Below, in pieces: positions 3,105 to 4,748 of a DNA stretch of 12,200 nucleotides; position 1 is the first letter of the stretch; the number at the start of each line of letters is the position of its first letter. Both the position numbers and the translations under genes were made by a program. This stretch comes from Candidatus Bipolaricaulia bacterium (lineage in GTDB: Bacteria; Bipolaricaulota; Bipolaricaulia; JBHIAT01). A model generated the notes under the pieces. That model saw only the letters and a program-made list of their open reading frames with translations, made no database searches and had not been told where the DNA came from. The DNA lies in contig JBHIAT010000112.1 of NCBI GenBank assembly GCA_046758705.1, forward strand, positions 1 to 12,200. Direction: 5' to 3'.

Positions 3105-3632
3105 TCAGGCAGGCATTGCGTGGGAGTGGAAGGTAAGCGGTGTATTCTGATAATCGTAGTTGCCCACGTGGGTTGTCAACAGCTGTTTGCGCTCATGATC
3201 CCAATAGGTGAGATCATACTCCGTAGGGTCCGATGGGTTATAGTTCTCCCCTAATAAGGCGAGCAATACCCGACCGGTGACATCGAGAACGTAGATGACC
3301 GTGGCCCCGTAGGGTTGCGGTGAGAAGAACGCGTAAGCGATTGCGTAGTGAACGGTACGATCGAATTCATAGTTCTCTCTCCCGGCCGTATACCCGGTGA
3401 GTTCACGATGGAAGTAAACATACCATTTCCATCCCTCATTCTGTACCCTGTCCCACATATACTGAAACACGGAGGGCAGGTCGGAGAAGTTATCAAAGTA
3501 CAGATGTTCGATCTTAACTTCGCCGGCGTATCCCCCGAACGGGACAGCATACAGGGCAAGCGATACGAGCCCCAAGATCGTGAACACGGCGATGATGGTC
3601 CCGCCTCTGGTTGCGATGCTTAGCCTTGACAT
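3105..3632 (-). CDS. Hypothetical exported or membrane-anchored protein (175 aa)
   Basis: ATG at 3632 with strong SD AAGGAGGTGA (3647-3638). Basic N-terminus plus hydrophobic stretch IIAVFTILGLVSLALYA, then a Tyr/Trp/Phe-rich body. No family recognised. The ORF-track extension to 3869 reads through the riboswitch. Confidence 0.8.
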   Translation of the reverse strand: MSRLSIATRGGTIIAVFTILGLVSLALYAVPFGGYAGEVKIEHLYFDNFSDLPSVFQYMWDRVQNEGWKWYVYFHRELTGYTAGRENYEFDRTVHYAIAYAFFSPQPYGATVIYVLDVTGRVLLALLGENYNPSDPTEYDLTYWDHERKQLLTTHVGNYDYQNTPLTFHSHAMPA

Positions 3633-3636
3633 AGGG

Positions 3637-3738
3637 TTCACCTCCTTAACTGCAGGAGTTGAATCGGTCAGGGCCTGCAAAGGTGGGTTGTACGGTCGGC
3701 CTGTTAAGATCCAGTACACCCAAAGTTTGCAAGGTCCT
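3637..3738 (-). promoter_or_regulatory. Putative translational expression platform (SD-sequestering hairpin plus long upstream stem-loop)
   Basis: UUCAACUCCU (3663-3654) pairs at 9 of 10 positions with AGGAGGUGAA (3646-3637). Upstream stem: CUUGCAAA/UUUGCAGG, UGGGU/ACCCA, GUAC/GUAC. Confidence 0.6.
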
Positions 3739-3822
3739 TCGGCAGCCCGGTCACCCCTGTAGTAGGGGTCCGTTGGCTTTGCGCCCCGCTGGGGCACCCT
3801 TTCGGGACCGACTGCTATCTCC
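3735..3822 (-). promoter_or_regulatory. Second, variant c-di-GMP-I (GEMM)-like aptamer
   Basis: RNA: GGAGAUA-GC-AGUCGGUCCC-GAAA-GGGUGCCCCAGCGGGGC-GC-AAA-GCCAACGGACCCCU-ACUAC-AGGGGUGACCGGGC-UGCCGAAGG. The junction GGGGCGCAAAGCC, P3 and the 3' CGGGCUGCCGAA are conserved, while P2 and P1 are altered. Confidence 0.6.
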
Positions 3823-3897
3823 TTCGGTAGCCCGACTGTCCTTTCGGATCCGTGGCTTTGCGCCCCCACCTTTCGGTGGGTTTGCCTTTGTCGTGGC
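3821..3897 (-). promoter_or_regulatory. c-di-GMP-I (GEMM) riboswitch aptamer
   Basis: RNA: GCCACGACAAAG-GCAAACCCACC-GAAA-GGUGGG-GGCGC-AAA-GCCACGGAUCC-GAAA-GGACAGUCGGGC-UACCGAAGG. It matches the class I layout: GCAAAC, P2 GNRA loop, GCGCAAAGCC junction, AG bulge in P3, 3' CCGA. G is at the G20-equivalent position (3886). Confidence 0.9.
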
Positions 3898-3918
3898 TGC
3901 GTCTTTGGGCTTCACTTC

Positions 3919-3947
3919 CTATTGTACCCAAACACCAAAAGGTTTAG
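3919..3947 (-). promoter_or_regulatory. Candidate promoter of the riboswitch leader
   Basis: Minus strand CTAAA-N13-GGGTACAATAG, about 20 nt upstream of aptamer 1. Contains TACAAT but no sigma70 -35. Confidence 0.45.
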
Positions 3948-3963
3948 CCGTGAGCGGCTAAAC
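3937..3963 (-). terminator. Probable intrinsic terminator of the sigma factor gene
   Basis: Perfect 9-bp inverted repeat GTTTAGCCG/CGGCTAAAC (3942-3950, 3955-3963) with a 4-nt loop, 7 nt after the stop, followed by CUUUU on the minus strand. Confidence 0.6.
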
Positions 3964-3970
3964 TAACGTG

Positions 3971-4726
3971 TTAACGTTCCAACTCCTTCTTAATCTCTTG
4001 GAGCGCTTGATCCTTGAGCCGGGAGATGTGGCGCTGCGTGTAGCCAATCTCATCGCCGACCTCCTGCTGAGTCTTCCCTTCATAGAACAAGCCTTGAATG
4101 ACCTTCTGCTGAATCTCAGATAGCTTCTCAATGATGATGGCGATCTTGATGCGATCCTCGATCGGAAGCTTGAAAGTTTCGTAGGTCTTGCTGCGGATCT
4201 TGTGGATGTCGATCCTCGGCCGCCCGTCAAGCTCCCGGCGCTTCTCGTCAAGGGGGATGTAATACATGCTCTCCCGGGCTTTCAGCACCTCGATAATCCC
4301 CTCCTCCTCGATGTTGAGCGCCTCGGCCAGCTCGCTGAGCGTGGGGAGTTCCCCGTTCTGCTGGAACAACTCCTCCTCGGTCCGCTTGACTTGCTCGTTG
4401 AGTCGCCGGAGCCAGCGGGGGATCCGGATGAAGTGCTGGGTCTTTCGGATGTGGTGGCGGATCTCACCTTGGATGAGATGAGTGGCATAGGTGCTGAACT
4501 TGAAGCCGCGATCCGGGTCGAAGTTATGGATGGCGTTGAGCAGGCCGATGTAGCCGGCCTGGACCAGATCCTCGTATGGCTCTCCGGAGTTCAAAAACCG
4601 CTTAGCCAGTGATTTGACCAGACCGATGTTCTGCTCGATGATGAGCGTTTCGACCTCGGGCCTGCTGGGAAGCTCGTTGAGGAGCTCTTCAGTCGTCTTG
4701 GATCGGTTCTTCAGATCTCGGTTCAT
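3971..4726 (-). CDS. RNA polymerase sigma factor, SigB/SigF/SigG family (group 3)
   Basis: Region 2 NIGLVKSLAKRF...EDLVQAGYIGLLNAIHNFDPDRGFKFSTYA...IQGEIRHH; IRIPR; region 3 PTLSELAEAL; region 4 TQQEVGDEIGYTQRHISRL. Start is ATG 4726 or GTG 4729. Confidence 0.93.
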   Translation of the reverse strand: MNRDLKNRSKTTEELLNELPSRPEVETLIIEQNIGLVKSLAKRFLNSGEPYEDLVQAGYIGLLNAIHNFDPDRGFKFSTYATHLIQGEIRHHIRKTQHFIRIPRWLRRLNEQVKRTEEELFQQNGELPTLSELAEALNIEEEGIIEVLKARESMYYIPLDEKRRELDGRPRIDIHKIRSKTYETFKLPIEDRIKIAIIIEKLSEIQQKVIQGLFYEGKTQQEVGDEIGYTQRHISRLKDQALQEIKKELER

Positions 4727-4748
4727 CACGAGGTTTCTCTATCGCCAT

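Follow-up and report, generated by a model that had tools for sequence, protein, structure and literature searches.

A tandem GEMM-I leader in a Bipolaricaulia bacterium combines a canonical c-di-GMP-I aptamer with a structural variant of simplified P2

The DNA analyzed here (the window) is a stretch of 12,200 nucleotides from contig JBHIAT010000112.1 of Candidatus Bipolaricaulia bacterium. On its minus strand, a leader of about 285 nt carries two GEMM-I elements ahead of a single gene. The first (unit 1) is a genuine canonical GEMM-I aptamer, and the second (unit 2) is a derived GEMM-I that keeps P1, P3, all the junction bases and the three ligand-contact bases, with P2 reduced. The locus belongs to the known tandem c-di-GMP-I kind, and its second aptamer is a structural variant missed by the family models. 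We favor, with a probability of roughly 0.6, a c-di-GMP leader in which two aptamers share a single translational platform. It would operate through competition between P1 of unit 2 and an anti-P1 element, c-di-GMP being the presumed ligand of unit 2.

Tandem arrangements are a familiar feature of this riboswitch class. The commonest tandem riboswitch is c-di-GMP-I, with 347 doublets and 12 triplets (PMC9481103), and a second survey likewise reports enrichment of c-di-GMP among tandem riboswitches (PMC12452182). Within the GEMM-I scaffold, a G versus an A contact base separates the sensors of c-di-GMP from those of c-AMP-GMP, and riboswitches of the latter kind occur in tandem or in clusters with c-di-GMP-I aptamers (PMC9481103). 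The initial annotation of the window, made from the sequence alone, placed such an A in unit 2 and proposed a leader with two inputs, c-di-GMP and cGAMP. It was right about the tandem of abutting aptamer-like units, both of which contain GGGGCGCAAAGCCA..CGGA.CC..GG..CGGGCURCCGAAGGA, and right to suggest a new structural variant of GEMM, unit 2 having a simplified P2 and scoring 24-29 bits. The two-input reading itself fails because it was based on a mis-registered alignment.

Leader layout and the canonical first aptamer

The leader is bounded on one side by the terminator of a sigma factor gene and on the other by a 175-codon open reading frame (ORF), all on the minus strand. The sigma factor gene (3971-4729), assigned to the SigB/F/G-like family, ends in a terminator-like hairpin with a T-run (3937..3963), in which a 9-pair stem at 3963-3942 is followed by CTTTTGG. 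A -10-like box, TGGGTACAAT (3921..3930), probably belongs to the leader promoter: paralogous leaders have GGGTAYAAT equally spaced before GAAGCCC. The transcript would start near 3914. A consensus scan did not call a full sigma-70 promoter at 3921..3930. Downstream follow unit 1 (3822..3896), a 12-nt inter-aptamer linker GAGAUAGCAGUC (3810..3821), unit 2 (3733..3809), a platform hairpin, H1 (3676..3731), a candidate anti-P1 element (3663..3669), and a hairpin formed by an anti-Shine-Dalgarno (anti-SD) strand and the SD sequence (3637..3662). There is no terminator or platform between the two aptamers.

The regulated gene (3105..3632) has a strong SD, AGGAGG, 8 nt ahead of its ATG at 3632. It encodes a protein of 175 aa (P0002) that has a hydrophobic segment at its N-terminus and belongs to no known family; searches returned 0 Pfam or NCBIfam families and no usable Atlas match. 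The only homologue found is a paralogue in the same genome (C60:16575-17066, 80% identity) that has no upstream GEMM leader, and riboswitch control thus applies to only one of the two copies. The leader is, then, the 5' region of a small orphan gene for a membrane or secreted protein, and in this respect resembles other c-di-GMP-I leaders. Upstream of the gene, its reading frame has no stop anywhere in the leader and reaches back to a GTG at 3869. High G+C has probably produced this by chance, because homology with the paralogue begins at the ATG at 3632.

Unit 1 passes the cut-offs of two Rfam models and is therefore a real GEMM-I aptamer. With Infernal, RF03167 (c-di-GMP-I-GGC) gives 72.5 bits at 3822-3895 (cut-off 59), and RF01051 (c-di-GMP-I), run over the whole assembly, gives 67.7 bits at 3823-3896 (cut-off 35), in agreement with the initial description of a canonical unit with G3886 before GCAAAC. 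At gathering thresholds, the RF03167 match at 3822-3895 is the one riboswitch that Rfam finds in the window. The Infernal alignment identifies the pocket bases as G3886 (G20), A3859 (A47) and C3827 (C92), where 20, 47 and 92 are the Vc2 numbers of the pocket positions. P2 (3885-3860) is interrupted by an AAA/GGC internal loop and capped by GAAA, P3 (3857-3829) has an AG bulge, and the fold has a z-score of -3.5.

The RF03167 label that unit 1 receives deserves a separate comment. Unit 1 shares the compact P2/P3 layout of this family, which is its best-scoring Rfam model, but it reads CGCAAA where the consensus is CGCGAA and so has an A where the model has a conserved G, presumably the base to which the name 'GGC' refers. 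Unit 1 thus lacks the defining base of RF03167, an intercalating G that immediately follows the G-C pairs closing P2. An A follows CGC in unit 1, in unit 2 and in all 36 related aptamers inspected, which have (G/A)C-AAAG; nevertheless, Rfam clan competition gives the RF03167 label to 25 of the 27 aptamers in 20 loci of related genomes (L062-L081). Given the A in place of the model's G, the pocket is therefore canonical and the label is a scoring artefact of the compact P2/P3, an annotation pitfall for compact GEMM-I aptamers throughout the phylum.

In both units, the three-helix junction of c-di-GMP-I (RF01051; Vibrio cholerae Vc2) is recognizable, with equivalents of G20, A47 and C92, an A-rich J1/2 strand, GCAAAGCC, and a P1 with an AA bulge. 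Unlike that of Vc2, P3 is short in both and has no 11-nt tetraloop receptor. Part of the linker, GCAGUC (3815-3810), can pair with GACGC (3903-3899) and lengthen P1 of unit 1, weakly in the window copy, where the extension (-5.4 kcal/mol) is at chance level, equalled by 102 of 200 shuffled sequences; the homologous linker forms a long P1 extension in two paralogous leaders (C52a and C81), equalled by 0 of 200.

Register and anatomy of the second unit

When the thresholds are relaxed, Infernal reports a further GEMM-I-like match, at 3737-3807, and its best alignments start at 3807 or 3808, not at 3822. The scores fall below both cut-offs: 29.0 bits for RF03167 (E = 6.2e-5 in a 431-base search; cut-off 59) and 23.9 bits for RF01051 (cut-off 35). 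In this alignment, UCCCGAAAGG forms the 5' strand of P1 together with J1/2, and position 20 is occupied by G3798, with A3780 and C3742 as the equivalents of A47 and C92. P1 joins GGUCC-CG to CG-AA-GGACC (3809-3803 with 3741-3733); its pairing energy of -9.5 kcal/mol was equalled by 23 of 500 shuffles. J1/2 (3802-3798) leads into P2, a continuous 7-bp hairpin, GUGCCCC-AGC-GGGGCGC, in which 3797-3791 pair with 3787-3781 around the loop AGC. P3 (3778-3744) carries a GA bulge (3752-3751) in place of the AG of c-di-GMP-I. Taken by itself, the segment 3732-3810 adopts exactly the same three-way junction (-39.2 kcal/mol; z-score -2.2), so that the P1/P2/P3 junction with its conserved strands is present in unit 2 as it is in unit 1. 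What sets unit 2 apart from c-di-GMP-I and Vc2, besides its score and the P3 bulge, is P2, which lacks both the AAAC/GAC internal loop that is the source of C44 and the GNRA cap.

The register in the initial annotation was different. Unit 2 was placed at 3822-3735: position 20 fell on A3816, P2 was formed by GGUCCC/GGGUGCC with a GAAA cap and 8 extra bases, and 3',3'-cGAMP was the ligand suggested. The letters on which this model drew exist (A3816, GCAGUC at 3815-3810 and the GA bulge at 3752-3751), and its hairpin CC-GAAA-GG (3805-3798) pairs when the entire leader is folded without constraints; the register that was built on them finds no support. The weak P1 that it assumed (-4.0 kcal/mol) was equalled by 177 of 500 shuffles, which amounts to no P1 at that place, and with both models Infernal aligns best in the other register. 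In the supported register, A3816 therefore lies in the inter-aptamer linker and not at the specificity position.

The leaders of the same genome bear further on the matter. The assembly (3.7 Mb, 93.9% complete, 4.7% contamination) contains 27 RF01051 matches above the cut-off, many of them in tandem. In 9 leaders of the genome, two units lie 12-15 nt apart (14 nt for the pair in the window). In 7 other leaders, the second position is taken by a canonical 84-nt aptamer scoring 51-71 bits, and the simplified form of unit 2 recurs in two leaders, at C97:370-452 and C190:4502-4584. The canonical second units start with the same GUCCCGAAAGGGU, followed by AAAC and a full GAAA-capped P2; this stretch cannot be P2, as the initial model required, because the full canonical P2 comes after it. 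Nor is that register kept in the C97 and C190 copies, which have GACCAUC against AGCAGUC in the window, and CCCGAUAAAGG in place of CCCGAAAGGG, so that there is no GNRA loop to cap a P2.

We aligned nine second-position units, two of the simplified form and seven canonical. In the supported register, 95.1% of the cells are paired, compared with 32-49% when the partners are slid, and in 6 pairs both partners vary. All nine units have the same G20, A47 and C92, and the reading of unit 2 as a cGAMP sensor is contradicted by this comparison: like the rest, it has G, not A, at position 20, unlike the GEMM-Ib (c-AMP-GMP) riboswitches, which share the GEMM-I scaffold and are defined by an A at this contact. 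We accordingly regard a cGAMP-sensing unit 2 in the earlier register as extremely improbable. A practical lesson is that position 20 of a GEMM element should be called only once P1 and homologues have fixed the register.

That the pairing of P3 is kept in spite of a different sequence, as had been noted at the outset, is borne out by two compensatory double changes between the simplified and the canonical second units, A-U to G-C (columns 62/117) and U-A to C-G (columns 68/109). Between the window and C97, identity is 81% in unit 2, 52% in the platform and 65% in the 60 nt upstream, and no difference in a stem breaks a pair (two are G-C to G-U, one is A-U to G-U); the remaining differences are in loops and bulges, with the junction bases untouched. 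The C97 and C190 copies are identical in unit 2 (83/83), at 88.7% in the platform, 90.4% at the start of the coding region and 72.6% upstream. This pattern fits selection on the structure and junction sequence of unit 2, which thus appears not to be a freely decaying duplicate, the third reading offered in the initial annotation. No homologue was found outside the genome, so the covariation is that of paralogues; because all comparisons are among paralogues of one assembly, gene conversion could contribute. Among four DNA sequencing runs, no variant letters are listed for 3637-3827 in X1-X3, and the variant-strain contig in X4 stops at 3745, which leaves these runs uninformative on selection in unit 2.

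One further difference among the simplified copies concerns the contact between P2 and P3. In Vc2, the P2 internal loop provides C44, the partner of G83 in P3; no binding could be measured after a G83C change, and folding was accelerated by the tetraloop contact (PMC11705072). In C97 and C190, the P3 bulge is AA where the window has GA, and the change of G3752, the first bulge base, to A co-occurs with a change to U of C3783, the base that precedes the closing GC of P2. This single coincidence could represent a swap from C-G to U-A in an equivalent of the C44-G83 contact; in the Infernal alignment, the base that takes the place of G83 is A3751.

Since the P2 internal loop and the GNRA cap are missing, ligand binding by unit 2 could be weak or lost. 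In the latter case, unit 2 would be a former second aptamer that binds no ligand and acts as a folded scaffold or spacer within the platform of unit 1, presenting GUCGGUC to GACCGAU, and the leader would be functionally a single riboswitch. Several observations point this way: unit 2 lacks both of the peripheral contacts that join P2 and P3 in Vc2, of which C44-G83 is reported to be essential for binding (PMC11705072); it scores below threshold; and decayed aptamer remnants occur in the genome, for example at C52:5334-5394. A mere scaffold would not, however, need the junction and pocket bases that are intact in all three copies. Moreover, unit 2 is conserved as much as unit 1 between C97 and C190, and the second position is normally occupied by a working aptamer, to judge from the scores of the canonical units in the seven other leaders. 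On balance, we consider the scaffold reading rather unlikely and prefer the dual-aptamer c-di-GMP leader.

A bolder version of the preferred reading is that unit 2 represents an unrecognised 'minimal-P2' GEMM-I, which would have lost both inter-helix contacts and would still sense c-di-GMP, perhaps only when helped by the upstream canonical aptamer. We put this forward as a speculative proposal, more doubtful than not by a good measure. If true, it would describe a c-di-GMP sensor of two cooperating aptamers and a single platform, of a kind that current Rfam models miss. Binding of c-di-GMP by unit 2 would mean that a GEMM-I pocket can do without two features that Vc2 structural work treats as important for docking, the internal loop of P2 and the tetraloop contact, and that such aptamers are under-counted by homology models; if unit 2 does not bind, it is an aptamer put to new use as a building element of a platform. 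In both cases, the claim of a natural leader with c-di-GMP and cGAMP as its two inputs fails.

Ligand supply and the single platform

The genome encodes 9 GGDEF domains, 8 of them with an intact GGDEF motif. Hypr-GGDEF enzymes are recognized by a Ser in place of an Asp; the Asp of the GD dipeptide is present in 9 of 9 domains here. The check for Hypr-type cyclases that the initial annotation had proposed thus turned up the canonical Asp throughout, a result that counts against its cGAMP model. A search of the genome for the SMODS family gave no match, and in a search for DncV-like proteins the control found nothing anywhere, which leaves that search without information either way. There is, in sum, no evident cGAMP synthase in the genome.

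The SMODS result also bears on the idea that the remodelled P2 has changed the ligand of unit 2 to another cyclic dinucleotide or a small molecule, which would again make this a two-input leader. The architecture departs from every family model, and GEMM-I variants of altered specificity are known (PMC9481103). The known changes of GEMM-I specificity, however, sit in the pocket bases, and the G, A and C of unit 2 are unchanged; the P2 loop and cap are far from the pocket. With no SMODS match in the genome as well, we regard a change of ligand as very unlikely and return to c-di-GMP as the presumed ligand of both units.

The platform begins with H1, in which UGCAAA (3731-3726) pairs with UUUGCA (3681-3676) around a variable arm; it is present in all folds, and its 4 innermost pairs are conserved in 6 of 6 paralogous leaders. 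It is followed by GACCGAU (3669-3663), which is invariant in the 6 aligned leaders that share the platform and lies directly 5' of the anti-SD strand. This heptamer is complementary to GUCGGUC (3812-3806), the 5' strand of unit 2 P1, and the two pair in the unconstrained minimum-energy fold. There the resulting helix is capped by CC-GAAA-GG (3805-3798), an arrangement that would bury G3798; the hairpin of the initial annotation may thus exist in the ligand-free state. In the last element of the leader, UCA-CUCCU (3662-3654) pairs with AGGAG-UGA (3646-3638).

The mechanism that we propose runs as follows. Both units would read c-di-GMP and would cooperate; binding would stabilize P1 of unit 2, and the stabilized P1 would take GUCGGUC away from its alternative partner, GACCGAU. 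As GACCGAU directly adjoins, on the 5' side, the anti-SD strand by which the ribosome-binding site is paired, the switch would act on translation initiation, and we take translational control by P1 versus anti-P1 competition as the most likely mode of action. When both aptamers are forced to fold, GGCCCUGAC is freed, and the pairing then predicted for it covers the start codon; c-di-GMP would in that case repress the gene. Folding under constraints that represent the bound and the unbound leader yielded no division into SD-open and SD-closed states and did not settle the ON/OFF polarity. The SD hairpin, with CUCCU (3658-3654) paired with AGGAG (3646-3642), is present in all of the states modelled, which weighs against the proposed output.

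The arrangement of two sensors of the same ligand before one gene is that of tandem c-di-GMP-I riboswitches, such as the triple tandem of Bacillus thuringiensis. With one platform and neither a terminator nor a platform between the aptamers, the leader also resembles the dual-aptamer glycine riboswitches, and it differs from the c-di-GMP-I tandems tabulated in PMC9481103, which are entered there with 'multiple expression platforms'.

Tandem and plain-P2 elements in this and other genomes

GEMM-I elements of the assembly are found on contigs C14, C23, C52, C55, C66, C68, C81, C82, C97, C149, C183, C190, C207 and C256. Their leaders follow a common plan, with a -10-like box, GAAGCCCAAAGAC, one or more aptamers and then the platform, and the ORFs downstream mostly have signal-peptide-like or pilin-like N-termini (ERGS..., then a hydrophobic stretch). 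At C52:5334-5394 (minus strand), a truncated aptamer remnant of 26.5 bits, with P3 missing, precedes a complete unit by 7 nt. Its GCAAAC is preceded by an A, and it has the look of a partial duplicate that has decayed.

The phylum consists of one class, represented by 184 genomes. A covariance model of the simplified form (R1) scored its own three copies at 91.8-110.5 bits, and the best foreign match among 150 other genomes of the class reached 48.7. In the 29 loci from this search, P2 is of the canonical YAAAC type in 35 of 36 aligned aptamers and plain in one (L082). A pattern scan of the 184 genomes gave 14 matches in 12 genomes, and its reversed control matched in 10; the control matches about equally often, so the pattern alone proves nothing. 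The same approach applied to genome representatives yielded 38 loci, none of them a close relative of unit 2; 8 odd loci from these were submitted to an Rfam scan, and 3 gave GEMM matches. Two scans of metagenomes yielded 0 and 26 loci, and none of the 26 resembled unit 2.

Three distant GEMM-like elements (L082, L171 and L100) likewise have no AAAC loop in P2, and we treat them as leads and not as a demonstrated class. The first, L082:1501-1587 (G087:C263, same phylum), has a GEMM-like P1 and J1/2, a plain P2 of 9 bp, GCAAAG and GCCGAAG; two hairpins replace P3, and the element is located about 130 nt upstream of a signal-peptide ORF. L171:1490-1566 (G063:C15, same phylum) is a minimal GEMM-like three-way junction of 77 nt with a plain P2 and a plain P3, in which the 3' strand of P1 (CG-AA-GAUG) holds the start codon of a Crp/Fnr-like ORF. 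Neither of these two has an Rfam match at E<=1. In L100, from a Lysobacteraceae metagenome-assembled genome, the first unit of a tandem (692-775) has a near-continuous P2, with a small U versus UC interruption and a 3-nt loop, and keeps the AG bulge as well as a bulged C; unit two of the tandem (820-904) is canonical, at 54.6 bits.

The abutting layout is not unique to this locus: apart from its recurrence within the genome, two units 12-18 nt apart occur in 3 of 20 loci of related genomes. Finally, five near-identical elements on metagenome contigs (L133, L134, L143, L152 and L153) have GGGAUCCCGAGGGAUGAGGUGAGGGCGCAAAGCC, a canonical P3 and then GCCGAAGG; their 3' half is GEMM-I-like, and their 5' half is unusual.
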